64,000 nt of DNA. Origin: an uncultured Alphaproteobacteria bacterium. GTDB lineage: Bacteria > Pseudomonadota > Alphaproteobacteria > RF32 > CAG-239. Below the pieces are notes generated by a model, which saw only the letters and a program-made list of their open reading frames with translations, made no database searches and had not been told where the DNA came from. Each line of letters begins with the position of its first letter. Within the stretch, counting starts at the first letter, position 1. A program made the translations under genes and the position numbers. Below are positions 4,134-52,629 of this stretch, one piece after another. Where the stretch lies: NCBI GenBank assembly GCA_944391475.1, contig CALXTR010000004.1:25807-89806 (forward strand), written 5' to 3'.

Positions 4134-5294
4134 CTAATTAGGTGAGTAAATCTTGCTGTTTTCAGGAATGGGCGCGCCAATGCCTTTTTCTAAAACATCA
4201 ACCGGTACAAAACCCATTTCGCCATTATCAACCATGACCCGATACCACTTACTATCAGGGGTTACCCCGCTGATACGAACGGTATGATTTTCCGGAAGTT
4301 CGAACATAACATCAAACTCTTTAGCCGGACCATACATTACCTTAGCCTCGCCTTTGAAGTGATATAATTTACTGGTATCATTAACATCAACCGGAATATT
4401 GAGCACTTTAGATACCACAATGTCGTCCACTGTTTGTTCACCGTTACTAAACTTAACCCGTTGGAAATAGGTTATCTCATCTTTTTTAGCAAACAACTTC
4501 ATCAACTCGGCATCACTAATGACGCTTGATGTAAGCGGAAACAGTGCCACAACAAACAACATTATCGGTACCGCTAATTGCAACATTTTTAACTTGGCAT
4601 AGTTCCAATGCGGCAAACGAGCTTTGTCGGTGCGAACTCCGGTTAGTCTAATAAACCGCTCCAACAAATCCTTTTGCTTATCATCGGCATATTCTTTAGC
4701 TTGCAGCGCCGAAAGCATAGACTTTTCCATTTTATTGTCTTGATAATATGCAATCGCATTATGAATGAGCAAGGTCAAATTTTGCGACCGATTGTGATTA
4801 ATGGCACTATAATTATGCGCAATAGCCTGCACGTTTTTGAACAGAGCCGGAATGCCCCACCAGCCTAAAAGCCAATTGCTAACCGAGGCTTTTAGCACCA
4901 CGGCCGGAGCTTCTAAAGCATTGCAGATTTCATCATCATTGCGTACTGAAGTGGAAACGATTTTGCCCCAAACCTTTTGCAAAGAGAAGGTGCGGATAAA
5001 CGGATTTTCAATTCCGGCGCGATCCTTATAAACTTTCAAGTTTGACATATCAGGAAAATTTTTGCTGACATAGGCCTGGCTTAACAAATCATATATAAGC
5101 CGGCTTTTCTCATCTTTTAATACATCATAGGCAACGGAGAGGTGTTGGAACTTCTCGGTTGCTTCCTCGCTGGTATTATGGTCAGGGTGCCAGCGTTTGG
5201 CTCGCTCGCGGTAGTTAGCTTTTATCTCAGCTTCGCTTGCGGCGGGAGTGAGGTCTAATATCTGATAATATCCTAAAGGGTCACGCATACTCAT
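4134..5294 (-). CDS. J-domain (DnaJ-like) membrane protein with a C-terminal SH3-like domain
   Basis: The N-terminal J domain carries the HPD motif (YYQILDL...YRERAKRWHPDHN...LSVAYDVLKD). A central transmembrane helix (LAVPIMLFVVALFPL) is followed by a C-terminal SH3-like stretch (SKWYRVMVDNGEMGFVPVDVLE). The start ATG overlaps the stop of the upstream 558-aa ORF as ATGA. Confidence 0.7.
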   Translation of the reverse strand: MSMRDPLGYYQILDLTPAASEAEIKANYRERAKRWHPDHNTSEEATEKFQHLSVAYDVLKDEKSRLIYDLLSQAYVSKNFPDMSNLKVYKDRAGIENPFIRTFSLQKVWGKIVSTSVRNDDEICNALEAPAVVLKASVSNWLLGWWGIPALFKNVQAIAHNYSAINHNRSQNLTLLIHNAIAYYQDNKMEKSMLSALQAKEYADDKQKDLLERFIRLTGVRTDKARLPHWNYAKLKMLQLAVPIMLFVVALFPLTSSVISDAELMKLFAKKDEITYFQRVKFSNGEQTVDDIVVSKVLNIPVDVNDTSKLYHFKGEAKVMYGPAKEFDVMFELPENHTVRISGVTPDSKWYRVMVDNGEMGFVPVDVLEKGIGAPIPENSKIYSPN

Positions 5295-6967
5295 ATATAT
5301 ATTCCATCCTGCAAAAGTGGGGGTTCGGGTTCATCATCGCATAGCTTGATAAACTTTTCTTTAATATTAATCCGAATATTACCGGCATAGTCAACCTCTG
5401 ACAGAGATTTCCTAAATAAATTCATAATTTCGGTGCAAAAGTCGGTATCAATTTCCTTTTCGGTACGGATAATAAGGTCAAAGCGTCTCTCTTGCGGCAG
5501 CGAAAAACCATCAAACTGAAAACCGCCCAGAGCCGTAAAAGAAGTATCAACCACAAAACGAGCTGCGCCTTTGCCTTTGGGGCTGGACTGTTGGTGGCGC
5601 CCATCTTTACCAAACCTTCTAACTGCAATCTGAATTCGGCTTAAGTTTTCGGCCCCATAAAACGGAATTTCAATAATCCGCCACTGGGTATTATCTTCAC
5701 GACGGCCGATAATCATATCTTCTAAGCGGGCCAAGGCCTTTTGTCCCTCGGGGCCGGAAAGGCGCAAGCTATCGACCACATCTTGCCCCAACCAACTCTC
5801 AATTTTTCCCTCACCGGTGGCTTTGAGAAAGGTCATAATATTAGATAGCATTTTGTGGTTGTGAGCCGGAATTTTATCAATAATGGCATTGTAAACCTTT
5901 GGTGACACCTGTGTTTGGAGCGGAGCCAAAATTTCGTGTAACTTGCTTCCTAATGACTGCGCTGTTCCTCCCTCTGATTTTTGGTTTATTTTAGGTTCTC
6001 GTTCTAGCCCCAGCAGTTCGGAAAAACGCAGGATAAATTTTTCACCAACGGCGATTTTGAGCGGAACTTCAGGGATTATCTCGCCTAAGGGCGTACGCAA
6101 CACAACTTTATCCCCGCGCAGGGAGGTTTCAGCCGTAATCTCGCGGCCAGAGGGACCATTTTCAAAAAAGTTTTTAATGGTCTCAATTATCTTTTCAGGC
6201 AAGCCTTGAGATAGTTTTGTATCAATACTGCTTGGCTGGTTGGAATATACCGCAGAATTGCTCTGTGGCAAAGATGTTTCCAGCAAAGGTTTGAGTGTGG
6301 CAGCCAAATTACGGATAACTTCCGGTAAGCTTTGAGCCATTGTAGTTGGTGGTGGCGAAACCGTAGTATTTGATTGCAACGCTGTTTCGACAATTTCGGG
6401 TTTGAGTGACAAATTTTCAATCAAATTGGATAGTTGGCGGATTTCAGAGCTCCCTACTCCCATAGCGGATAATTCACGTGCCAAAAGTGGCTGCAAGCGC
6501 AGCGGAACCAAAGCGACATCTTGCAAATTGCCAATGGTTTTAACCACTGCCGCAGTATTGCTAATAGTGTCTTTTATTGCTGACGTGGATACAAAATTTT
6601 CAACCTTCTGCCCATCAACACTTATCAAGCGGACATCTATCCGCTGAGGAGTTTTGGCGACTACTCGCGCCTGAATTTGGCTGGCTTGTTCAGGAAGCTG
6701 TACTTGTGGTGGCAAGTTCATTGTAACGGTAGCATTTGCGCTCCCGGTGTTCTCCCCGCTTCCTACACCTAAATCAATACTGACCAGCAACTTTCCGGTT
6801 AAGGTTTGCATAGTTTGCGGCTTAATCTGCAGGTTAATCTGCTGGCCTAAATTCAGGTTTCCCATGCCGCCTTCGGGAGTTTCAATCCCTGCGGTCACCC
6901 CAGAGCCGGTACTGCCGCCTTCGGGAAGAGTCACATTTAGCGGCGGAACCAGATTAGTCATTGGCAA
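5291..6967 (-). CDS. Hypothetical protein encoded inside the flagellar export operon (no recognisable domain)
   Basis: A 558-aa ORF directly downstream of flhG, overlapping its last codons. The sequence is Gly/Ser/Thr/Pro-rich. The first codon at 6967 is TTG; the ATG at 6961 is an alternative start. No confident motif was found. Confidence 0.5.
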   Translation of the reverse strand: MPMTNLVPPLNVTLPEGGSTGSGVTAGIETPEGGMGNLNLGQQINLQIKPQTMQTLTGKLLVSIDLGVGSGENTGSANATVTMNLPPQVQLPEQASQIQARVVAKTPQRIDVRLISVDGQKVENFVSTSAIKDTISNTAAVVKTIGNLQDVALVPLRLQPLLARELSAMGVGSSEIRQLSNLIENLSLKPEIVETALQSNTTVSPPPTTMAQSLPEVIRNLAATLKPLLETSLPQSNSAVYSNQPSSIDTKLSQGLPEKIIETIKNFFENGPSGREITAETSLRGDKVVLRTPLGEIIPEVPLKIAVGEKFILRFSELLGLEREPKINQKSEGGTAQSLGSKLHEILAPLQTQVSPKVYNAIIDKIPAHNHKMLSNIMTFLKATGEGKIESWLGQDVVDSLRLSGPEGQKALARLEDMIIGRREDNTQWRIIEIPFYGAENLSRIQIAVRRFGKDGRHQQSSPKGKGAARFVVDTSFTALGGFQFDGFSLPQERRFDLIIRTEKEIDTDFCTEIMNLFRKSLSEVDYAGNIRINIKEKFIKLCDDEPEPPLLQDGIYI

Positions 6968-7766
6968 CTAACCTCTTGGCGATGGCATAAACATCTTCAG
7001 CCGCTTCGGATGTGGGGTAGCGGTTAAAAATTGTACTTTGGTTGCGAATGGCGTCGCGGACGCGGGTATCTCGACGGACAATCCCCAACAGCGGCGGATT
7101 TATCTTTAAGAAATTGGTACAAGCTTTGAGCAATGTATCATAAGTGCGCTGGCCTTCACGCAAAGAATTGGCCTGATTGACCACAATGCTAATATCGCAT
7201 TTAGTATATTGCATGGTCATAATCTTGATAAAAGCATAGGCATCGGTCAAAGAAGTGGGTTCATCGGTACAAACTACAATTATCTTTTCGGCTAAGCCAG
7301 ACAAAATCCTCACTGGTTTTTCTACTCCGGCACCCATATCCAAAATTACCTTATCGTAAGAAGAGGCCAATACATTCAAATCCTCTCCTAATATCTGCAA
7401 TCTACCGACCGGAAGAGAGGCCAAACCTGCAGAGCCCGAACGACCGGCAATGACATCAAAGTGTCCTTTATCATAATGATGTACAACCTGATTTAAGGTA
7501 AGGCTTCCCGAAACAACGCTCCCGATATCATATTTTGCCATTAACCCTAACTGAATGTCGACATTAGCCAAGCCTAAGTCGCCGTCAAAAAGTAAGGTCT
7601 TTTGTTTTAAGATGCTAAGCGAGTGTGCCAAGGTGATGGAAAACCAAGTTTTGCCAACACCGCCCTTACCCGAGGCAACCGCAATCAGGTTCTTGCCTTT
7701 TTTGGTGCTACGGGGAGTGGTCCCTCGGGGCATGATTTTTAGTTCTTCGGGTTTGTTTTGTTCCAT
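6954..7766 (-). CDS. flhG: Flagellar number regulator FlhG/FleN (MinD-type ATPase)
   Basis: A deviant Walker A motif (GKGGVGKT) and MinD/ParA-family features. The gene is immediately downstream of flhF. Confidence 0.8.
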   Translation of the reverse strand: MEQNKPEELKIMPRGTTPRSTKKGKNLIAVASGKGGVGKTWFSITLAHSLSILKQKTLLFDGDLGLANVDIQLGLMAKYDIGSVVSGSLTLNQVVHHYDKGHFDVIAGRSGSAGLASLPVGRLQILGEDLNVLASSYDKVILDMGAGVEKPVRILSGLAEKIIVVCTDEPTSLTDAYAFIKIMTMQYTKCDISIVVNQANSLREGQRTYDTLLKACTNFLKINPPLLGIVRRDTRVRDAIRNQSTIFNRYPTSEAAEDVYAIAKRLVAND

Positions 7767-7793: not shown

Positions 7794-8750
7794 TTAAGCC
7801 AAAATCAGTTTACTTAATCCGGCAGGTGTTATCTCTGATAAACCTCCGGCAATGTTTGCGCTCACACTAGCTGCACTAAAACTCAGTTCGCAACAAGCGG
7901 CAACCGATAATAGTGAGCCGATGCGGCGGGTTAAATCAAGCCGGGTTGGCAAAAGTTGTTTGGCACCAAGTTCGGTAAAGACTTCGGCTATTTCTATAGC
8001 TTCATAAGTATTGCTACCTGCAGACATAACCAAAATCTTATCTCCTTTAATTACCTCCAGCCAGCGACCGACTTTTTTGACATCTTCTTCTAAAAACGGA
8101 TTAATCCCCGGGGTATCTATCAAGACCAAATCATAATTTTTTTCAGCCTTTTGCAACAGCTCGTACAAATTGCGCTCGCTCTTACAGAAGAAAAAATCTT
8201 GCTCCAAAATCTTGGCAAAAGCTTCTAACTGCTTGTTGGCTCCGGCGCGGACATTATCAGTGGAAACAATGCAACAAGAAAGCTTTTTCATCAGCGCTAA
8301 AGCCGCCGTTTTGGCAATGGCGGTGGACTTGCCGCTACCGGGAGCCCCCATAAAAACTTTGCAAGGGTTGCTTTTATCTAAGATATCGCAATAAGTATAT
8401 AACTCCCCTAATGCCAACTCCAAGAGCCTACGGTCATCAAAAATTTGCCGCTCGGCACTCAACTTCCTAACTGCAGATAATATCCGCTGTTTAACCAAGT
8501 CCAAAGTATCGTGATATTCTAAACTCTCGCGCAGCAAGCGGTCGGTATAGCGCGAGGGATTGTCGTGCACTTCCAGTTCTTGTGCTTCGTTAAAGCTAAT
8601 CTCTTGGGTTTCTTCAACGGCAGCAGTAACTCTGATTTGTCCGTCGTCCAAGGTTTCAGTCGAAATAATGACGGCATCATTGCCCAAAGCCTCGCGGGCT
8701 AAGCTCATAGCCTCCAAACTTCCTGATGCAGTAAAGGTTTTGATTTTCAT
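7794..8750 (-). CDS. flhF: Flagellar biosynthesis GTPase FlhF (SRP-type)
   Basis: SRP-GTPase motifs GAPGSGKST and DTPG, with a B-domain-like N-terminus. The gene lies between flhA and flhG. Confidence 0.8.
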   Translation of the reverse strand: MKIKTFTASGSLEAMSLAREALGNDAVIISTETLDDGQIRVTAAVEETQEISFNEAQELEVHDNPSRYTDRLLRESLEYHDTLDLVKQRILSAVRKLSAERQIFDDRRLLELALGELYTYCDILDKSNPCKVFMGAPGSGKSTAIAKTAALALMKKLSCCIVSTDNVRAGANKQLEAFAKILEQDFFFCKSERNLYELLQKAEKNYDLVLIDTPGINPFLEEDVKKVGRWLEVIKGDKILVMSAGSNTYEAIEIAEVFTELGAKQLLPTRLDLTRRIGSLLSVAACCELSFSAASVSANIAGGLSEITPAGLSKLILA

Positions 8751-8762
8751 TTGCCTTTACTC

Positions 8763-10889
8763 CTAAATTTGGCCAACCGTCTTGATTTTGGCTTTGGGGT
8801 GAATTTCATTTTGGGACATGACCACGGTCAGCGGGCGAAAACGCTCAATAATCGAACGTACAAACGGTCTAATCCCCGGACTGGTCAGCAAAACTGCGGT
8901 TTCTCCTTTGGCAGCTAATTCTTCCAGCGAATTTCTAACCTTGGTGATAAACTGCTGCAAGGCACTCGGAGCCATAGCCAACTGGCGGTCATCGCCCTCA
9001 CCTACAATTGCTTCGGCGAAGGCATGCTCCCATTCGGGCGACAAGGTAATCAGCGGAATTACCCCAAACTCATTGGCATTGGCATTAGACAGCTGGCGTG
9101 CCAAACGTGAACGGACATGCTCGGTTATCATCATCAGGCTGTGGGTTGAAGACACGGCTTCGGAAATGCCTTCCAAAATGGTGGGCAAATCGCGAATCGA
9201 AACCCGCTCTTGCAACAAGTTTTGCAAAATACGTTGTACCGCACCCAAGCTTACTTTGCTTGGAATAAGTTCTTTAACCAGTTTTTGCTGCTCTTTATCC
9301 ATTTCTTCGAGCAATTTCTGCGTCTCGGCGTAAGACAACAATTCTGGCATATTATCTTTGACCAACTCAGTGATATGTGTGGTCACCACGGTGGCCGGAT
9401 CAACCACCGTATAGCCCCTAAACATGGCTTCTTCGCGGTAACTCTGGTCAATCCACATAGCCTTGAGCCCGAAAGTCGGCTCATAAGTTTGCTCTCCCGG
9501 CAAGGTGATAGGCTCACCTCTTGGATCCATCACCAGCAACTGGGTTGGGCGAAGTTCTCCTTTGCCGGCCTTAACTTCTTTAATGTAAATATTGTACTCA
9601 TTGGCCTCTAACTGCATATTATCCTGAATGCGGATAGAAGGCATGACAAAACCTAATTCTGAGGCTAAAGCTCGCCGCAAAGCTTTAATCTGGTCGGTCA
9701 ATTTCTTATTAGCCTCTTCATTAATCAACGGCAGCAAACCATAGCCGATTTCCAAACGTATCAAATCCATTCTCAAGGCTGTGGCTATCGGCTCATCGGC
9801 CGCTTTGGTTACTTTGCCTTGCTTCTTTTCTTGCTCCATAACCTCTTGGGCGCGCGCTTGGGCCGCTTTTTGCTGCTTGTCTAAATAATAGGCCGTGGCT
9901 CCGGTCAATGAGGCAAGCAAAATAAACGGAGCAGCCGGAGTGCCAGGTAACATACCTAAAGCCAAAGCCATAAATGCGCTCATACCCAAGGCTTTAGGAT
10001 AATTGGTAACCTGCTCAAACAAAACTTTATCAGTTGAATCGGTCATGCCGGCTTTAGATACCAAAATACCGGCAGCAATAGAAATTATCAGCGCCGGAAC
10101 CTGACTGACCAAACCATCACCAACTGTCAAGCGAGTATAAGTTTCGGCCGCATCAGAAAAGCTCATATCATTTTGAACCATACCAATGATAATACCGGCG
10201 ACCACGTTAATAAAGGTAATAATCAAGCCGGCGATAGCATCTCCGCGGACAAACTTGGAGGCACCATCCATGGCTCCATAAAAAGAGCTTTCTTTGGACA
10301 AGTCTTCGCGGCGGGCTCGCGCCTCATCTTCGGTTATCAACCCTGATGACAAGTCAGCGTCAATCGCCATTTGCTTACCGGGCATTGCATCCAAGGCAAA
10401 ACGAGCGGCAACTTCGGCAATACGTCCCGAACCTTTGGTAATAACTACAAAGTTAACCAAAACCAAAATGGCAAATACAATCACACCGATAACAAAGTTG
10501 TTACCCATAATGAACCCGCCAAATGCCTTAATGACTTCACCGGCGGCATCAGGGCCCATATAACCATTGGCCAAAATCAATCGGGTGGAGGCTAAGTTCA
10601 ACGACAATCGATACATAGTGGTGATGAGCAATACCAACGGAAAAGCACTAAACTGATTGGGCTTTTCGATAAAAATGGCAGTCATTAAGACCAAGCACGA
10701 TATGGTAATGGAAAATGCCAAGGCAATATCAAGCAACCAGGCTGGCATCGGCAAAATCAAGATTACCAGCATTAGGACAATGGATAACGCAAAGAAAATA
10801 TCGCCCCGCTTTGTGGAGGCAACTATCAAATCCTTAAACGAACGTCCGCCAAATACCGAACTGCTGACATTTTCTGCTTTTTTTGCCAT
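8763..10889 (-). CDS. flhA: Flagellar type III export apparatus protein FlhA
   Basis: A 708-aa protein with a multi-transmembrane N-terminal domain and a cytoplasmic C-terminal domain. The FHIPEP-like core and the characteristic FlhA N-terminus are present. Confidence 0.9.
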   Translation of the reverse strand: MAKKAENVSSSVFGGRSFKDLIVASTKRGDIFFALSIVLMLVILILPMPAWLLDIALAFSITISCLVLMTAIFIEKPNQFSAFPLVLLITTMYRLSLNLASTRLILANGYMGPDAAGEVIKAFGGFIMGNNFVIGVIVFAILVLVNFVVITKGSGRIAEVAARFALDAMPGKQMAIDADLSSGLITEDEARARREDLSKESSFYGAMDGASKFVRGDAIAGLIITFINVVAGIIIGMVQNDMSFSDAAETYTRLTVGDGLVSQVPALIISIAAGILVSKAGMTDSTDKVLFEQVTNYPKALGMSAFMALALGMLPGTPAAPFILLASLTGATAYYLDKQQKAAQARAQEVMEQEKKQGKVTKAADEPIATALRMDLIRLEIGYGLLPLINEEANKKLTDQIKALRRALASELGFVMPSIRIQDNMQLEANEYNIYIKEVKAGKGELRPTQLLVMDPRGEPITLPGEQTYEPTFGLKAMWIDQSYREEAMFRGYTVVDPATVVTTHITELVKDNMPELLSYAETQKLLEEMDKEQQKLVKELIPSKVSLGAVQRILQNLLQERVSIRDLPTILEGISEAVSSTHSLMMITEHVRSRLARQLSNANANEFGVIPLITLSPEWEHAFAEAIVGEGDDRQLAMAPSALQQFITKVRNSLEELAAKGETAVLLTSPGIRPFVRSIIERFRPLTVVMSQNEIHPKAKIKTVGQI

Positions 10890-10907
10890 GATTAGACTTT
10901 AGTTTTC

Positions 10908-12242
10908 CTATCCGTTAGAGGGCGGGACTTCATAGCCTTCGTCCTGATATTGTTTGAGTTTGTTGCGCAAGGTGCGAATCGATATTCCCAGCAAATTTGC
11001 CGCTTGTGTTCGATTGCCAAAGGTATGCTTTAAGGTATCAATTATCAAATTTCTTTCCATGCCGGCCAAGGTTTGTCCGCCTCCTACAATTCCGGCAGAA
11101 GGGACTGTTTCTTCCGCTATCGGGGTCGGATTAATTACGGCACTCGGGTCTGTTAAAATGATAGCTTCAGGCTCAATTTCTTCGGCATTAGACAGTAGAA
11201 CCGCACGGTGGATGGTGTTTTCTAGCTCACGGACATTGCCCGGCCACAAATAATTGAGCAACATATCGCCTGATGCCTTAGACAAGTCTTTCATCGGCAA
11301 ACCATTTAGCTCGGAATATTTTTTGATGAAATGCTTGGCCAAAACCAAGATATCTTCCGGACGATCTTTCAAATCGGGAATATTGATATTGACCACATTC
11401 AAACGATAATACAAGTCCTCACGGAATGCACCGTCTTTAACCGCTTGGGCCAAATTGCGGTTAGAAGTAGCAATAATCCGCACATCTACTTTTATTGGAG
11501 TTTTTCCGCCTATTCTATCAATCTCTTTTTCTTGAATGGCACGCAACAATTTGGCCTGAATTCGGATATCCATTTCCGAAATTTCATCTAGCAGCAATGT
11601 TCCGCCTGAAGCTTCCTCAAACTTACCAATACGGCGGGCCACCGCGCCGGTGAAAGCGCCCTTTTCATAGCCAAAGAGTTCAGATTCCAACAAAGTTTCA
11701 GGGATAGCTGCGCAGTTAACTGCTACAAATTTTTTATTGGCTCTTTTGGAATTGTCATGAATGAACCGAGAAAAAACTTCCTTACCGGTTCCAGAGGAGC
11801 CGGTCAACAAAACACTGGCTTCCGATGGCGCAATTTGCTTGGCCATTTTCAAAATAGCCTCAGTTTTCTTATCACCATAAATTAATGCATGGTTCTCGCG
11901 AGTGGCTGCGGCTAAAACCGCACCAATCAGCTCAGGGTCGGGAGGAAGCGGAATATACTCTTTGGCTCCGGCCTTAATCGCCTTAACGGCTAGGCTCGGG
12001 TCATTGGCCACACCACAAGCTACCACCAAAACATTTATCCGCTCGCTTTCCAAAGAACTGATAAACTTATAGACATCGAGCTTGACATCAATCATGACCA
12101 GCTCAATACTCTTGCCGGAACGAAGAATATTCAATGCAGCATCAATATCTTGTGCCAGCGAAACTTGACCACCCTGCGAAATGGCAATCTTGCTGGCAGC
12201 GCCTATCTGCCCGTCTAAAGTTCCAACAATTAACAGCTCCAT
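10908..12242 (-). CDS. flbD: Sigma-54-dependent flagellar transcriptional activator (FlbD/FleR-like)
   Basis: A receiver-like N-terminus and an AAA+ sigma-54 interaction domain (GSSGTGKE Walker A, GAFTGA motif, ESELFGYEKGAFTGA). A C-terminal HTH follows (NRTQAANLLGISIRTLRNKL). The position after fliN matches the Caulobacter order. Confidence 0.8.
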   Translation of the reverse strand: MELLIVGTLDGQIGAASKIAISQGGQVSLAQDIDAALNILRSGKSIELVMIDVKLDVYKFISSLESERINVLVVACGVANDPSLAVKAIKAGAKEYIPLPPDPELIGAVLAAATRENHALIYGDKKTEAILKMAKQIAPSEASVLLTGSSGTGKEVFSRFIHDNSKRANKKFVAVNCAAIPETLLESELFGYEKGAFTGAVARRIGKFEEASGGTLLLDEISEMDIRIQAKLLRAIQEKEIDRIGGKTPIKVDVRIIATSNRNLAQAVKDGAFREDLYYRLNVVNINIPDLKDRPEDILVLAKHFIKKYSELNGLPMKDLSKASGDMLLNYLWPGNVRELENTIHRAVLLSNAEEIEPEAIILTDPSAVINPTPIAEETVPSAGIVGGGQTLAGMERNLIIDTLKHTFGNRTQAANLLGISIRTLRNKLKQYQDEGYEVPPSNG

Positions 12243-21106: not shown

Positions 21107-21122
21107 TGCAAACAGCGTGCCA
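21107..21122 (-). promoter_or_regulatory. Sigma-54 (RpoN) promoter upstream of fliK-flgD-flgE
   Basis: The minus strand reads TGGCACGCTGTTTGCAT, which is the canonical TGGCAC-N5-TTGCA. It lies about 25 nt upstream of the fliK start. Confidence 0.7.
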
Positions 21123-33935: not shown

Positions 33936-35054
33936 ATGGCAGATATTTCATTAACAGCAAGTATGCGTTCAAACTTGCTTTCCTTGCAGCAGACACAGTC
34001 GCTGATGGATACTACTCAAGAACGCCTTTCTACAGGTAAGAAAGTTAACTCAGCTATTGACAACCCGTCATCTTACTACGCAGCACAGTCTTTGACTAAC
34101 CGTGCGAGCGACTTGAGCGCTTTGCTTGATAGCATGGGCCAAGCCATTCAAACCATTCAGGCTGCCGATGAAGGTATTAAGACCATCACCGAGTTTGCTG
34201 AACAAGCCAAAGCTGTGGCTAACTCCGCTCGTGACGAAGCTGTTGACATGAGTGACATTTCAGTTGCGCTTGATATTAAAGCTCAAGCGGCAGCAGCAAG
34301 TACTCTTAAGATTGATATTACTAAAGCAGATGGAACTGCTGGTACCTCAACAACGGTATCAATTGCACAAAATACCACTGCTGAAGAAGCCAAAGCACAA
34401 ATTCTGGAAGAATTGAATGCTGATGGCACTGGCGTTAAAGCCTCTTTTGATAAAGATGGTAAATTGGTTATTACAGCTCAAGATGGTGCTACTGCCAAAT
34501 TGACAGGCACAGGAGACTACAATGCCGCTACCGGCACTTCTGCACCGCAAGTAAACGAGTCACGTCAAAAATTAGCCGCTCAATTTGACAGCATTTTGGC
34601 TCAGATTGATAAAGTTGCTAATGACTCTAGCTACAAAGGTGTTAACTTGTTGCAAGGTAATGACCTTAAAGTAGTGTTCAACGAAGACCGTTCTTCTGAC
34701 TTGGTTATTGAAGGTAAGGACGCTTCTTCTGCCGGCTTGAAGATTGCCGCTTCTGCTAATGATTGGAAGACCAATGCTGACGTTGATGCCGCAATCACTC
34801 AGATTGAAGATGCAATTAAAGAATTGCGTACTATGTCATCTGAGTTTGGTAACAACTACTCAATCGTTCAAAGCCGCGAAACCTTTACCGAAAACTTGAT
34901 TAACGTTTTGGAAGAAGGTTCAGATAAATTGACCTTGGCTGATATGAACGAAGAATCAGCAAATATGTTGGCTCTTCAAACCAGACAGCAGTTGGCTATT
35001 AACTCCTTGAGTTTGGCTTCTCAGGCTGCTCAATCAGTATTGAAACTGTTCTAA
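33936..35054 (+). CDS. Flagellin (372 aa)
   Basis: The conserved flagellin N-terminus (MADISLTASMRSNLLSLQQTQ...STGKKVNSAIDNPSSYYAAQSL) and C-terminus (NMLALQTRQQLAINSLSLASQAAQSVLKLF) are present. The RBS is GGAGA. Confidence 0.9.
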   Translation: MADISLTASMRSNLLSLQQTQSLMDTTQERLSTGKKVNSAIDNPSSYYAAQSLTNRASDLSALLDSMGQAIQTIQAADEGIKTITEFAEQAKAVANSARDEAVDMSDISVALDIKAQAAAASTLKIDITKADGTAGTSTTVSIAQNTTAEEAKAQILEELNADGTGVKASFDKDGKLVITAQDGATAKLTGTGDYNAATGTSAPQVNESRQKLAAQFDSILAQIDKVANDSSYKGVNLLQGNDLKVVFNEDRSSDLVIEGKDASSAGLKIAASANDWKTNADVDAAITQIEDAIKELRTMSSEFGNNYSIVQSRETFTENLINVLEEGSDKLTLADMNEESANMLALQTRQQLAINSLSLASQAAQSVLKLF

Positions 35055-36572: not shown

Positions 36573-38708
36573 TTAGTTCCGCCCCGGCACATTTTTGGCC
36601 AACAATTCATAATTTATCGATTTATCAAACTCTTGACCTTCATGATTGGTTTTATACAAATTGTAACGGAAATAAATTGATGACTGCTCTTTTAGCAACT
36701 CTGCCGAATTATTCACATTATCCATAAGCTGCTCGGTGTAGTTATAATAAGTTTGGTAACTATTGAGATTGATGGATATATCCTCAGCAATTGGACTGTT
36801 TATCTCTTGGGTATGTTGCAAAATGGCTGCTTCGGTAAAATCATCCGTGGCCTTGAAAATACTGCTCATGGCTTGCTCCGGAAAAGCACCCAGTGCAGCT
36901 ATATCTTCAACTTCATCAAACAAATTGCTGTCGGCATCATTAAAGTTATCATCACCCAAATAGCCAGGAACCAAATATGAATTGCAGACACCTCGCTCCA
37001 ACTCGTGGGCTAACTTATTAATGCCATATTTTTCAAGTTCAGGATATGCTGAAGCAATTACATCTAGGTTATTGGAGAACTTATTAAACTGCGCTTGGTG
37101 CAATTGTGACATACTTTGCAGTGAAGCTTCCAAAGTTTCTCGCTCTTTGCTTATCATTAACCGTTGGATAGCCATGTTGGCATGATAATAGAGCTCAACT
37201 GCTCCAAATTTTTCTAAACTATCCGGCAATGCCTCAATTTGTTGATATAAGTTATTGCTGGGTTCAATGAATTTGGTAGTCGTGATAATTTGGTTTATCT
37301 CTTGATAATGAGATGAAAACGAGGTCCAAAATGGAGCCAGCACATTAAAGTTATCTGCGGTGAGCGAATCTGCATATGACATTTCTGCCAACAATTTGCG
37401 GTCCAACTTGCTATCAGTGAGCTTTTTACCTAAATATTTTTCGCTGTGTTCGGAAAAAATCATCATCTCTTTAGTGAAATCGAGTAAATTGCGCGCAACC
37501 AGACTATTTATCGGGCGATTATCTGTTATAGATAAAACCTTGAATAGCTGATTTAGCTCAAAATTTACTAATGGAACCTGTCCTTTGTCAGGGTAAAAAT
37601 CTGATGCCAAAGCATTTCCTAGAAGATCTCTGAGCCCCTCAAACAGCTCGCTGCCTTCTACAATGGTGCGCGATTTTTCATATTGCTGCCATTTATCTTG
37701 CTGAAATTGGTCTTTGGTATGTTGTTGGAGTTCAAGCTTTTGAAGCTCGCCATCTGATGCATAATCCTTGGGCAGCTGAATCGGCTTGGATAATGATAAA
37801 TCGACCGGAGAAATGCGAATTGGAGCTTCCCATTGGTGAGCTAATTTCTGACGGAAAATTTGCAAACGCAATTCTTCTGCGCTCAAAACTGCAGAATCGT
37901 TTGCATGCTGGAGTAGGGTTAAGTGATGGCGATTTTCCATGACTTCGGCAATAACCCCATGGTCAGATACTATAATTTTACTTAAAGCTGAGGTTGACTG
38001 ATATACTATCTTATACATTTGCTCAGGCGTCACAACATTTTCATAGCCCTTAATGCGTGATAAGATTTGTTCGGTTAAATCTTGGCGGTTGGGGTCCAGT
38101 CCATTTTCCACATACCGAATACAATTGTCATATAAGATGCCGTTAAGCGCCTCAATGTTATCCAACAAATTGCGCTTGTTGCTAAAAAATATTGCAATAC
38201 TTTGCCCTAAATCGCGGTCATCTATTTGCTCATAGAGCTCTGCTTTGCGTTGGGTAGCGACCGTGTCTAAATAGGCATCGGCAATGTTGCTTAAAAACAT
38301 AGCCCAACTCGTGGCATGCTTCTTGTCCTCCTCTGCGGGAAGATTTTGAGCCCAATCAAACAATTGGTGTATCGGAGCCGCTAGAGAATAACCACTTTCA
38401 CTTATGGGAGATACATCAGCAAACTTACGATCATCTAAAACATGACCATGAAGGCTTATGGACAACAAATATGCGGCTTCGGCCCTATCGTTGGCGTCTA
38501 TCGGTTCAACCTTGTGCCCATAAAAAACTTCTAGCTCTGTAGCATAGGCCTTTAGCATCGGATAAAAACCGGCAATAATTTCGCGGTCTGCAAAATATTT
38601 GGCTTGCTCTTGATCGTGAATGTTATTGGCTAAAAAATACTCCTCCAGCAAATCCGGAATGGAGACCAGAAGCTGCATATATTCTTGTTGATGTTGTATA
38701 TCTGTCAT
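36573..38708 (-). CDS. Large hypothetical protein (711 aa), no recognisable domain
   Basis: A long ORF with an ATG start, 71 nt downstream of flgE2 with no intervening terminator. It has no signal peptide or transmembrane segment, and an acidic composition. Confidence 0.55.
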   Translation of the reverse strand: MTDIQHQQEYMQLLVSIPDLLEEYFLANNIHDQEQAKYFADREIIAGFYPMLKAYATELEVFYGHKVEPIDANDRAEAAYLLSISLHGHVLDDRKFADVSPISESGYSLAAPIHQLFDWAQNLPAEEDKKHATSWAMFLSNIADAYLDTVATQRKAELYEQIDDRDLGQSIAIFFSNKRNLLDNIEALNGILYDNCIRYVENGLDPNRQDLTEQILSRIKGYENVVTPEQMYKIVYQSTSALSKIIVSDHGVIAEVMENRHHLTLLQHANDSAVLSAEELRLQIFRQKLAHQWEAPIRISPVDLSLSKPIQLPKDYASDGELQKLELQQHTKDQFQQDKWQQYEKSRTIVEGSELFEGLRDLLGNALASDFYPDKGQVPLVNFELNQLFKVLSITDNRPINSLVARNLLDFTKEMMIFSEHSEKYLGKKLTDSKLDRKLLAEMSYADSLTADNFNVLAPFWTSFSSHYQEINQIITTTKFIEPSNNLYQQIEALPDSLEKFGAVELYYHANMAIQRLMISKERETLEASLQSMSQLHQAQFNKFSNNLDVIASAYPELEKYGINKLAHELERGVCNSYLVPGYLGDDNFNDADSNLFDEVEDIAALGAFPEQAMSSIFKATDDFTEAAILQHTQEINSPIAEDISINLNSYQTYYNYTEQLMDNVNNSAELLKEQSSIYFRYNLYKTNHEGQEFDKSINYELLAKNVPGRN

Positions 38709-38779: not shown

Positions 38780-39985
38780 TTATGTCTTTAAGTTAACGAG
38801 CTCTTGAAGCATCTCATCACTGGTGGTAAAAGCTGTCGCATTCAAGGAATATGCACGCTGCACAATCATCATAGTGCTAAACTCCTCCTCAACATTGGCT
38901 GTAGAGGATTCCAAGGCTTGTGATTGTATCAGCCCAGAGGTTTCAAGATACGTGCTTTCTCCGGCATCGGGATAGGCCTCAAACAAGGTGCCAGAAACCG
39001 GATACAAATTGTTAGGAGCACTAAAACCTACCAATGCCAGCTTAGCATTATTAAATGTTTTTCCATTACTATAAACTGCTTGAACAACTCCGTTTTCATC
39101 AATCCAGCTTTTGCTAAAGCGGCCACTTTGCATACCATCTTGGGTAACGTTAGTTAACTCGTTGCTACCGGTATACTGGGTCATATTGCTGATATCAATA
39201 TTGACGGTTTGAGACATTCCATCTTCCCATGCAATATTTATATCAATGTTTTTGGGAGAAACCAGCTGACCATTAGCATCGAAAAGCACTTCTACTGGCT
39301 CGGATGTAGTTACGGTTCCGTCTTCAATTACAAAAGAAACATCCCAAATGTTGTTTTGGCCTTCTACCTTATCAAATTTCATATTCATGGTGCGACCGTC
39401 ATACTGCTCACCATAAATGGTAAGAGCATAGCTGCTGGAAGTTTCATCAGCAGGAACATTGGCCGTGATGCTCATTTCACTGGTTGGTGTGGGAGGAATG
39501 GTTTCCGGACTGATAATTTCAATATCTTCCGGATTGCTGCCAAAACCACCGCCTTCCAAAGCCGGAAAGCCCTGAACGCGGAGACCGCCTGAGGTGATGA
39601 GGTAAGTTTTGCCGTCCACGGTTCTGGTTTCAAAATCGCCGGCACGGGTATAATAAACATCTTCACCATCTTTAACCATAAAAAATGCATTACCGGTACC
39701 ATTAATGGCAACATCGTAGTTGCCGCCGGTGGAGGTGACAACACCTTGCATATCTATGAGGTTGCGATTATAGTACCCAACCCCGTCTATATCCGTGTGT
39801 GAAGAAGATAGCCCTGACTGGTTGCCTTTGACAATTGGCTGACTACCGAGCAAAGTATAAAACATGGTTTCGCTGACCTTATAACCGGTAGTGCGAATAT
39901 TGGCAATATTGGTCGAAACCGTTTCCAAAGCCTGAGACTGCGCGCTCATGCCGGTACAAGAGGGAGTGAATATACTTAGAGCCAT
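38780..39985 (-). CDS. flgE: Flagellar hook protein FlgE paralogue (401 aa)
   Basis: The N-terminal rod/hook motif (STNIANIRTTGYK) and the C-terminal motif (MIVQRAYSLNATAFTTSDEMLQELVNL) are present. The RBS is GGAGAG. Confidence 0.8.
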   Translation of the reverse strand: MALSIFTPSCTGMSAQSQALETVSTNIANIRTTGYKVSETMFYTLLGSQPIVKGNQSGLSSSHTDIDGVGYYNRNLIDMQGVVTSTGGNYDVAINGTGNAFFMVKDGEDVYYTRAGDFETRTVDGKTYLITSGGLRVQGFPALEGGGFGSNPEDIEIISPETIPPTPTSEMSITANVPADETSSSYALTIYGEQYDGRTMNMKFDKVEGQNNIWDVSFVIEDGTVTTSEPVEVLFDANGQLVSPKNIDINIAWEDGMSQTVNIDISNMTQYTGSNELTNVTQDGMQSGRFSKSWIDENGVVQAVYSNGKTFNNAKLALVGFSAPNNLYPVSGTLFEAYPDAGESTYLETSGLIQSQALESSTANVEEEFSTMMIVQRAYSLNATAFTTSDEMLQELVNLKT

Positions 39986-51246: not shown

Positions 51247-52629
51247 ATGGCTGATATTTCATTAACCGCAAGTATGCGTTCTAACCTTTTATCTTTGCAG
51301 AACACTCAGTCTTTGATGGACATGACACAAGAGCGTCTTTCCACCGGAAAAAAGGTTAACTCTGCAATTGATAACCCTACTTCTTACTATGCTTCTCAAT
51401 CTTTAACAAATAGAGCTGGCGACTTAAATGCTCTGCTTGATAGTATGGGACAGGCTATCCAAACGATTAAAGCTGCAAATGAAGGTATTGAAGCAATTAC
51501 GTCTTTTGCCGAACAAGCTAAAGCTATTGTTAACTCGGCAAGAGATATTCCGAGCAATTATGATAAATATTCCATCACTTCTAATGATGTGAGTGATGCT
51601 GGTTTGGCTGCCGATGATGTGTTGATTGTGGACAGTCGTACAGATATGAGCGAGTTTACTCTCACTTTCGGCGCTGCTGATGCAGAGCAAAAGTTTAATG
51701 TCTATGTCAACGGAGAAGCTCATGAAGTGGCGCTGGAAGCAACTTCAACTGATGCTGCTAAGGCTGCCGCAGACGCTAAAACTAAGCTGCAAGCTTTGGG
51801 CTTGATTGTAGAAGATGGTGATGCTGCTGGTTCATTAAATGTGCGATCCAAAGACGGTTCGGATATCTATTGGATTAATGATGGGACTGATGGTATCGGA
51901 ACTGCAACAACCGCCGCAAAAAGCGTTACATTAGAGGCAGCCGACATTGCAAACTCTGCTGCTTTGGCCGCAAAACTGACTACCGGATTGGGGACAACCG
52001 CTACGGTTGAGGTGAATGCCGACCAAATTACCATTATGGCGGAAGGAAAAGAGTTTGTGGTGGCCGGAGATGCTGCCGATAAGCTCAATATGGCCGACAG
52101 CCGTAAATCAGGAAATGCAAATGAGCCTGTGGCAGAGCGCGTTAGCTATGCTGAACAGTTTAACAAAATTTTGGTGCAGATTGATCAGCTGGCTCAAGAC
52201 TCCGGTTATAAAGGGGTTAACCTCTTGCAAGAAAATGACCTGAAAGTTATTTTCAATGAATACAGAACTTCTGATTTGATTGTGGAAGGCAAGGATGCAT
52301 CGACCAAAGGGCTGCAAATGTCTGAGGCTGTGGGCGATTGGCAAAAAGATGCCGATTTGGAAATTTCTTTACAACAAGTGGAAGATGCTATTAATACACT
52401 TAGAACTATGGCTTCTGAATTTGGTACTAACTACTCAATTATTCAAAGCCGCGAAGACTTTACTGAAAACTTGGTCAATGTGTTGGAAGAAGGTTCCGAC
52501 AAGTTAGTCTTGGCCGATATGAACGAAGAATCGGCTAATATGTTAGCTCTGCAAACAAGACAGCAACTTGCGATTAACTCTTTGAGTTTGGCTTCGCAAG
52601 CAGCTCAAGCAGTGCTCAAATTATTCTAA
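51247..52629 (+). CDS. Flagellin (460 aa, longer central domain)
   Basis: The N- and C-termini are nearly identical to flagellin 1. The central region is divergent and longer. Confidence 0.9.
   Translation: MADISLTASMRSNLLSLQNTQSLMDMTQERLSTGKKVNSAIDNPTSYYASQSLTNRAGDLNALLDSMGQAIQTIKAANEGIEAITSFAEQAKAIVNSARDIPSNYDKYSITSNDVSDAGLAADDVLIVDSRTDMSEFTLTFGAADAEQKFNVYVNGEAHEVALEATSTDAAKAAADAKTKLQALGLIVEDGDAAGSLNVRSKDGSDIYWINDGTDGIGTATTAAKSVTLEAADIANSAALAAKLTTGLGTTATVEVNADQITIMAEGKEFVVAGDAADKLNMADSRKSGNANEPVAERVSYAEQFNKILVQIDQLAQDSGYKGVNLLQENDLKVIFNEYRTSDLIVEGKDASTKGLQMSEAVGDWQKDADLEISLQQVEDAINTLRTMASEFGTNYSIIQSREDFTENLVNVLEEGSDKLVLADMNEESANMLALQTRQQLAINSLSLASQAAQAVLKLF

Follow-up and report, generated by a model that had tools for sequence, protein, structure and literature searches.

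A J-domain gene closes a flagellar operon

Examination of 64,000 nucleotides of DNA from an uncultured alphaproteobacterium (contig CALXTR010000004.1; this entire stretch is referred to below as the window) revealed a flagellar operon on the minus strand whose last gene, at 4134–5294, encodes a 386-residue protein from an ATG start. The predicted product comprises an N-terminal J domain, a single transmembrane helix and a C-terminal SH3-like domain, and is very likely, judging from the genes that accompany it here and in related genomes, a J protein linked to the flagellum. The gene comes after flhG and a gene of unassigned function, orf558, and overlaps the latter. Specifically, orf558 ends ATA TAT ATA TGA on the minus strand and the J gene opens ATG AGT ATG, such that the stop codon of the one and the start codon of the other share the sequence ATGA (5291–5294, minus strand; direct sequence reading). 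This overlap at the end of the operon had been reported in a first-pass annotation of the window, and stands. A total of 356 homologues of the J protein, almost all of them full length, were obtained in a database search; the open reading frame is therefore a real gene.

Domain architecture and topology of the J protein

The J domain was assigned to residues 9–69 (5088–5270, minus strand) by Pfam DnaJ, with an E value of 7.2e-21 and a score of 74.5 bits (cutoff, 27.8), and by Foldseek comparison with the PDB, in which the N-terminus superposed on solved J domains with root-mean-square deviations of 0.6–1.3 Å. In the AlphaFold model, the domain extends over residues 1–74. The histidine-proline-aspartate (HPD) motif occupies residues 36–38, encoded by CAC CCT GAC at 5181–5189 (minus strand; read directly from the sequence), in agreement with the intact motif described at first pass. 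When homologues were aligned, HPD was found to be kept in 17/17 close homologues and in 17/18 divergent members, and residues of J-domain helices II and III were likewise invariant. J domains with HPD stimulate ATP hydrolysis by Hsp70, and class-C J proteins localize Hsp70 to a given site or client. The window protein presents the features of this class (also termed type III), namely a J fold with HPD between helices II and III, whereas the glycine/phenylalanine-rich region, CxxCxGxG repeats and DnaJ C-terminal domains are absent, as judged with Pfam and with TIGR02349, to which only residues 9–112 align.

AlphaFold modeling, using an alignment of 17 sequences, yielded a model with a mean predicted local distance difference test score (pLDDT) of 84 and a predicted template modeling score of 0.62. 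This prediction, proposed as a check in the first-pass annotation, revealed the J domain to be followed by a hairpin, helices, the transmembrane helix, a linker and a barrel. The beta-hairpin, at residues 101–124 (4923–4994, minus strand; strands 101–110 and 115–124), is a degenerate zinc ribbon, as considered below. Next comes a predicted cytoplasmic domain of five helices, at residues 129–218 (4641–4910, minus strand), which bears the motif NW.(L).GWW and for which no Pfam family was matched. Here, N140, W141, G144, W145 and W146 are invariant and are kept in remote relatives. The single transmembrane helix, at residues 232–258 (4521–4601, minus strand), was assigned on the basis of a long AlphaFold helix and of Kyte-Doolittle hydropathy, the 19-residue mean reaching its maximum of 2.25 at residues 241–259 (next best, 1.03); one hydrophobic peak appears at the same position across all 17 aligned homologues. 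Beyond the membrane lie a putative periplasmic linker (residues 259–297; 4404–4520, minus strand), of which residues 268–294 have pLDDT values below 50, and an SH3b-like domain, also predicted to be periplasmic (residues 298–370; 4185–4403, minus strand), recognized from the beta-barrel model, from Foldseek and from Pfam matches in relatives. With Foldseek, the barrel resembled the SH3b domains of the endolysin Psm (4krt) and of NlpC/P60 proteins (3npf and 6biq), and also eukaryotic SH3 domains. When PHROGs were searched, only the J domain of the protein was matched.

Because a J domain needs Hsp70 and ATP, and because the protein has no N-terminal signal peptide, the N-terminus should face the cytoplasm and the SH3 domain the periplasm; indeed, this would be the sole topology allowing for a working J domain. 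The charges flanking the transmembrane helix, namely five lysines or arginines before it and three after it, are weakly consistent with such an orientation. The gene product is accordingly predicted to be a class-C (type III) J-domain protein, bitopic in the inner membrane, that would stimulate DnaK, a reading indirectly favored by the conservation of HPD in 17/17 close homologues. The single transmembrane helix and SH3-like C-terminus described at first pass are thus borne out by hydropathy, AlphaFold and Foldseek, with the window protein itself matching Pfam SH3_3 below threshold and the periplasmic location following from the argument just given.

Flagellar gene context across the family

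Gene context was considered in the best 80 of 208 stretches containing a relative, taken from species-representative genomes of gut Alphaproteobacteria. The homologues come from gut-associated alphaproteobacterial metagenome-assembled genomes, where nearly all carry no label or are termed 'J domain-containing protein' or 'CbpA'. Compared with the window protein, mean identity is 63% in the J domain, 46–48% in the middle domain and 53% in the SH3 domain. The J gene lies directly behind flhG in 28/80 loci and behind flhG-orf558 in the other 52/80, and hence in the same setting in 80/80. If, for each J gene, the ATG closest to the expected N-terminus is taken as the start, it overlaps or directly adjoins the preceding stop codon in 73/80 loci, mostly as ATGA, the largest gap being 44 nucleotides. 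The genes downstream of J vary by lineage. In one locus (L022), the order is FliG-like, FlhG, J. In four others (L066, L070, L075 and L077; about 9100–11160), the J gene is paired with a gene for a divergent FleN-type ATPase, with no match to FlhA, FlhF, the sigma54 activator or orf558 being detected within 10 kb; in L077, where neighbors are annotated, the pair is flanked by a resistance-nodulation-division efflux operon and tgt.

To reach beyond the gut clade, a profile of the family minus its J domain (A2) was searched over 1.84 billion representative proteins. This yielded 785 proteins at E values up to 1e-3, falling into two groups, the first comprising SH3-repeat proteins and the second proteins of 330–550 residues that match the middle domain. 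Scanning of ten members of the second group revealed an N-terminal J domain in 9/10 and Pfam SH3_3 in 6/10. In these remote relatives, with some 25% identity, the J domain, middle domain, transmembrane helix and SH3 domain are kept. A zinc-ribbon-like CxxC...CxxC pattern is found at the position of the hairpin in 14/17 remote members and in 0/17 gut-clade members (alignment A3), such that a zinc ribbon has been lost in the gut clade, with the hairpin of the window protein being its decayed form. Named members belong to Rhodospirillum sp., Magnetospirillum sp. UT-4, Pararhodospirillum photometricum and Rhodospirillum rubrum, and are annotated for the DnaJ domain only; gene context was read for the Magnetospirillum and Rhodospirillum sequences, those of Pararhodospirillum and R. 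rubrum being named matches.

A flagellar neighborhood was found at 9/9 remote places read, corresponding to eight distinct contexts. In L082, the order is FliH-FliN-activator-FlhA-FlhF-FlhG-650 residues-J, in L084 it is FlhA-FlhF-FlhG-621 residues-129 residues-J-J, and in L085 and L086, near-identical copies from beach sand, it is FlhA-FlhF-FlhG-525 residues-J. In L083, a FliF...FlhF-FlhG-J arrangement converges with fliJ-fliI. In Magnetospirillum UT-4 (L087), the J gene is divergent from fliF-fliG-fliH-fliN-flbD-flhA-flhF-flhG, and in L081, L088 and L089 it is convergent with fliJ-fliI and lies beside a gene for a CtrA-like regulator. The L083 protein, P0304 (8001–9515), contains DGG in place of HPD, yet retains its middle and SH3 domains and is still encoded right behind flhG. 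As the flagellar association has outlasted several rearrangements and holds at identities as low as about 25%, chance placement is ruled out. The family belongs to Rhodospirillales-like Alphaproteobacteria and is encoded most often directly behind flhG. Flagellar synteny in related genomes, the test named at first pass, was thus observed in the 80/80 close loci and at the 9/9 remote places.

Several other features of the remote loci were noted. L084 contains tandem paralogues with the J-transmembrane-SH3 layout, P0233 and P0265 (8920–11194). A conserved domain of about 150 residues, with the motif WC...P.NG...L, follows the SH3 domain in P0279, P0287, P0298, P0304 and P0309 (A3 columns about 545–690), and returned no Pfam match. 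In Rhodospirillum-type loci, a gene of about 130 residues is often found just before the J gene (L081, 7598–7987; L084, 8534–8923; L088, 7592–7993). Its product gave a weak QueF-like Pfam match in 2/3 copies (L081 and L088), and the window yielded no counterpart.

This distribution bears on whether the J protein could instead serve in housekeeping or in envelope stress, as a protein akin to DjlA or one tied via ftsI to cell division, with its place in the operon being incidental. The stop codon of the J gene (4134, minus strand) does indeed lie 4 nucleotides from the convergent stop codon of ftsI (4129, plus strand), FlhG of Bacillus subtilis has been tied to cell-wall synthesis via GpsB and PBP1 (PMC12826062), and relatives of the J protein are annotated solely as CbpA or DnaJ-domain proteins. 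The synteny described above, retained to about 25% identity, nonetheless points the other way, as do the NCBIfam scores for DjlA, CbpA and DnaJ, all far under their cutoffs. Moreover, ftsI adjoins the J gene in the closest relative only; because the adjacency is not conserved, the link to division was rejected. Overall, this explanation is considered very unlikely. In the window, the mraZ-rsmH-ftsL-ftsI cluster ends at ftsI, and murE does not follow.

The operon and the neighbors of the J gene

On the minus strand of the window, the operon encodes, in order, FlaF, FliK (with a true Flg_hook domain), FlgD, FlgE, FliF, FliG, FliH and FliN. These are followed on the same strand by a sigma54-dependent activator of the FlbD/FleQ-like type (10908–12242; Pfam Sigma54_activat and HTH_8), FlhA (8763–10889; Pfam FHIPEP, E 3e-260), the signal recognition particle-type GTPase FlhF (7794–8750; Pfam SRP54, and NCBIfam TIGR03499 at E 1.6e-34, under the curated cutoff), a MinD-like ATPase of the FlhG/FleN type (6954–7766; PDB FleN match), orf558 (5291–6961; 556 residues from an ATG or 558 residues from a TTG at 6967) and, last, the J gene. 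Counted from the activator, the genes are spaced by +18, +12 and +27 nucleotides, followed by overlaps of 8–14 and 4 nucleotides.

Scanning of the window for terminators revealed fewer terminator-like sites than in shuffled sequence and was uninformative; one such hairpin, on the plus strand (4170–4185), falls within the J coding sequence. A sigma70 promoter scan of the window returned sites at about 2 standard deviations over shuffles, none of which could be interpreted. A perfect sigma54 -24/-12 motif, TGGCACGCTGTTTGC, is found at 21108–21122 (minus strand), 25 nucleotides upstream of the fliK start. The scan for this motif returned no site near the J gene and a total count not over chance. 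The window also contains a second flagellar set, consisting of two flagellins, a FlgE-like hook protein and an adjoining open reading frame of 711 residues (36573–38708 and 38780–39985, minus strand; 33936–35054 and 51247–52629, plus strand); no Pfam match was obtained for the 711-residue product. Given the two flagellin genes and the second FlgE-like gene, the organism is taken to be flagellated.

When the ATPase encoded after flhF was compared with PDB sequences, FleN (5j1j) was matched at E 2.3e-37, Geobacillus FlhG at 1.8e-35 and MinD at 4.9e-17; by these matches, the protein is clearly assigned to the FleN/FlhG type and not to MinD. It stops 5 residues past the conserved core; a further 26–31 residues are present in FleN and in Geobacillus FlhG. 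Similarly short FlhG proteins (265–272 residues) are encoded in 5/6 related loci compared (L022 and L082–L085), with the sixth, the divergent L077 ATPase, being longer, at 285 residues. The C-terminal stretch present in FleN and Geobacillus FlhG is the amphipathic helix with which FlhG, when ATP-bound, attaches to the membrane (PMC7226244). The FlhG of the window is without this membrane-targeting helix.

The other neighbor, orf558, returned no Pfam, NCBIfam or PHROG match and contains no hydrophobic or transmembrane segment. The gene evolves fast, yet its product is homologous to those of the open reading frames of 525–650 residues that occupy the same slot in L082, L084 and L085 (hmmsearch E 6e-33 to 7e-44). 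By this comparison, orf558 adds another undescribed gene to the flagellar cluster. Its AlphaFold model was poor (pLDDT 62), with long low-confidence segments, and nothing was returned in a fold search with that model. The possibility of orf558 being a second FliK was also considered and rejected as unproven, since comparison of the orf558 family with the FliK of the window using hhalign gave an E value of 0.67 and the true FliK is encoded elsewhere; the aligned stretch, a non-significant similarity of the orf558 C-terminus, sits inside the C-terminal Flg_hook domain.

The closeness of orf558 and J raises the possibility of the J protein being a dedicated co-chaperone for the orf558 product, or for a flagellar export or assembly substrate, in which case it would serve assembly competence rather than placement. 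The start of J overlaps the stop of orf558 here and in 48/52 species with orf558, members of the orf558 family accompany J in remote loci, and the long low-confidence segments of the orf558 model are in keeping with such a client. At the same time, orf558 is not adjacent in 28/80 species, nor in L083 or the Rhodospirillum and Magnetospirillum loci, and a simple client chaperone would need no periplasmic SH3 anchor. As such, a role of this type seems improbable.

Comparison with known J proteins and flagellar landmarks

Comparison with described J proteins was considered next. Like the J protein of the window, DjlA of Escherichia coli is of class C, is anchored to the inner membrane by one transmembrane helix and exposes its J domain to the cytoplasm. 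In DjlA, however, the transmembrane helix is N-terminal, the J domain is C-terminal and there is no periplasmic domain. The order of domains in the window protein is thus reversed, in line with the topology opposite to that of DjlA proposed at first pass. We know of no flagellar gene context for DjlA. With NCBIfam, identity with DjlA was rejected on a score of 19.8 bits (NF006948; cutoff, 162) as well as on the reversed order of domains, identity with CbpA on a score of 48.6 bits (NF007618; cutoff, 403), contributed by the J domain only, and on the presence of the transmembrane helix, CbpA being soluble and having DNA-binding C-terminal domains, and identity with DnaJ on a score of 73 bits (TIGR02349; cutoff, 377). 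TopJ was ruled out on its NCBIfam score. DnaJ and CbpA, of classes A and B, share with the window protein a canonical J domain with HPD, but the latter differs in being anchored to the membrane.

The closest functional parallel is found in Vibrio alginolyticus, where SflA, a DnaJ-family protein with a single transmembrane segment that localizes with flagella, acts as a repressor of flagellation in cells missing FlhF and FlhG; how it does so, and with which partners, is unknown (PMC7226244). The first-pass annotation had held that no J protein is a described component of the flagellar system. As SflA has been described, that claim is wrong (PMC7226244). Hence, while the observations made at first pass, namely the open reading frame, its domains and its place in the operon, hold, the interpretation holds in part, with the flagellar link being retained and the lack of precedent not.

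SflA and the J protein of the window are alike in being single-pass inner-membrane proteins with a cytoplasmic J domain, a periplasmic protein- or ligand-binding domain and a tie to FlhF and FlhG, which is functional in SflA and read from gene context in the window protein. They differ in that SflA runs from a signal peptide through a periplasmic N-terminus and the transmembrane segment to a C-terminal J domain, whereas the order is reversed in the window family; in that the periplasmic domain is TPR/Sel1-like (SLR) in SflA and SH3b in the window family; and in that the zinc-ribbon/helical middle domain of the latter is additional relative to SflA. Moreover, SflA is confined to Vibrio and its gene lies away from flagellar clusters, whereas genes of the window family are found in Alphaproteobacteria and within such clusters. 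When the profile of the family minus the J domain was searched against PDB sequences, nothing significant was obtained, and at E values up to 1 the PDB chains returned included no SflA chain, the solved N-domain of SflA (PMC7226244) being expected among the chains searched but its presence there being unchecked. The J family would best be read as a functional analogue of SflA and is not its homologue.

Landmark proteins offer a second point of comparison. HubP/FimV and FipA of gammaproteobacteria are, like the J protein, membrane proteins, and position the FlhF/FlhG system. HubP/FimV comprises a periplasmic LysM domain, a transmembrane segment and a cytoplasmic part (PMC12918733), while FipA interacts with FlhF and is described as required for FlhF-dependent formation of a polar flagellum (PMC12826062). 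It could thus be asked whether the J protein is likewise a static landmark or membrane receptor that, by way of its cytoplasmic domain and periplasmic SH3 domain, mainly tethers FlhG lacking its membrane-targeting sequence (or else FlhF) to a site at the envelope, with DnaK recruitment being secondary or regulatory. The arrangement of a periplasmic domain of the wall-binding type, a transmembrane helix and a cytoplasmic part does parallel that of HubP/FimV (PMC12918733), FlhG is without its amphipathic helix, and P0304, though having no HPD, keeps its other domains and its place behind flhG. Set against this, HPD and other J-domain residues are kept in 17/17 gut-clade and 17/18 divergent members, and the J domain, at 63% mean identity, is the best conserved segment of the protein. 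Furthermore, HubP/FimV and FipA have no J domain, and no LysM, FimV or DUF2802 Pfam match was obtained with the window protein at E values up to 0.01. A static landmark is therefore regarded as an improbable alternative, on a par with the orf558 co-chaperone.

The partners of FlhF and FlhG listed in a December 2025 review are HubP/FimV, FipA, GpsB, C-ring proteins and FlrA/FleQ; DnaJ, J-domain proteins, SflA and Alphaproteobacteria are not mentioned there (PMC12826062). In the literature searched, which omits some journals, nothing relevant was found concerning a J protein beside flhG or flhF in Alphaproteobacteria. Within that literature, the J family, its position behind flhG, its architecture of N-in J domain, zinc ribbon, transmembrane helix and SH3 domain, and its pairing with an FlhG lacking the helix are undescribed.

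A proposed role in flagellar placement

The reading favored here, to which we assign a slightly better than even chance, is that the gene encodes a class-C J protein dedicated to the flagellum, bringing DnaK to a site at the cell envelope where its targets would be FlhG, FlhF or early basal-body proteins. In such a scheme, the SH3b domain would fix the J protein at the envelope by contacting peptidoglycan or a periplasmic part of the basal body, while the cytoplasmic zinc-ribbon/helical domain would bind a flagellar client. The J domain would then trigger ATP hydrolysis by DnaK, which would clamp and remodel the client locally. The likeliest client would be the FlhF/FlhG switch. Within it, FlhG is preferred because it shows the tightest linkage to J, because an isolated FlhG-J pair is found in four species and because the membrane helix is missing; other candidates are FlhF, the orf558 product and nascent MS- or C-ring proteins. 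Where, or how many, flagella start would thereby be controlled, as proposed for SflA.

A more specific version of this proposal would have the FlhF/FlhG placement switch of Rhodospirillales-like Alphaproteobacteria be chaperone-driven, with the J protein capturing the helix-less FlhG at the membrane and DnaK then loading, releasing or disassembling FlhG and FlhF, or the nascent MS/C ring. This version is offered tentatively and is thought unlikely as it stands, if less so than the static landmark considered above.

Several points weigh against the favored reading. In Rhodospirillum-type genomes, J lies beside fliI-fliJ and not beside flhG, such that the client need not be FlhG. As P0304 does not contain HPD, part of the function may be independent of DnaK, possibly as a scaffold. 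What the family may do, beyond what its architecture implies, is guilt by association from gene context. Because the promoter and terminator scans were unusable, we infer co-transcription of the J gene with the operon from spacing alone. Finally, binding of peptidoglycan by the SH3 domain is putative, and the window protein matches Pfam SH3_3 (PF08239) with an E value of 0.003 and a score of 18.2 bits, under the 27-bit cutoff. Membership in SH3_3 is seen at the level of the family, remote members scoring 30.7–31.6 bits, over that cutoff, and is sub-threshold for the window sequence alone.

The December 2025 review treats as an open question the positioning and regulation of FlhF and FlhG in bacteria other than the Gammaproteobacteria and Bacillota (PMC12826062). 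SflA demonstrates that flagellation can be under the control of a J protein in the membrane (PMC7226244). The adjacency of J and flagellar genes in the related genomes examined suggests a part for a chaperone in deciding the place or number of flagella, a lead for the flagellar placement field that is drawn entirely from comparative genomics. As the family is widespread and has cultured members, including Magnetospirillum and Rhodospirillum rubrum, the hypothesis can be tested in tractable organisms. A large set of genes now termed 'DnaJ domain-containing protein' or, wrongly, 'CbpA' could also be renamed. Should the proposal prove true, Hsp70 would be an integral and dedicated part of the control of flagellar number and position, and a mechanism would be offered for the unexplained action of SflA in Vibrio.

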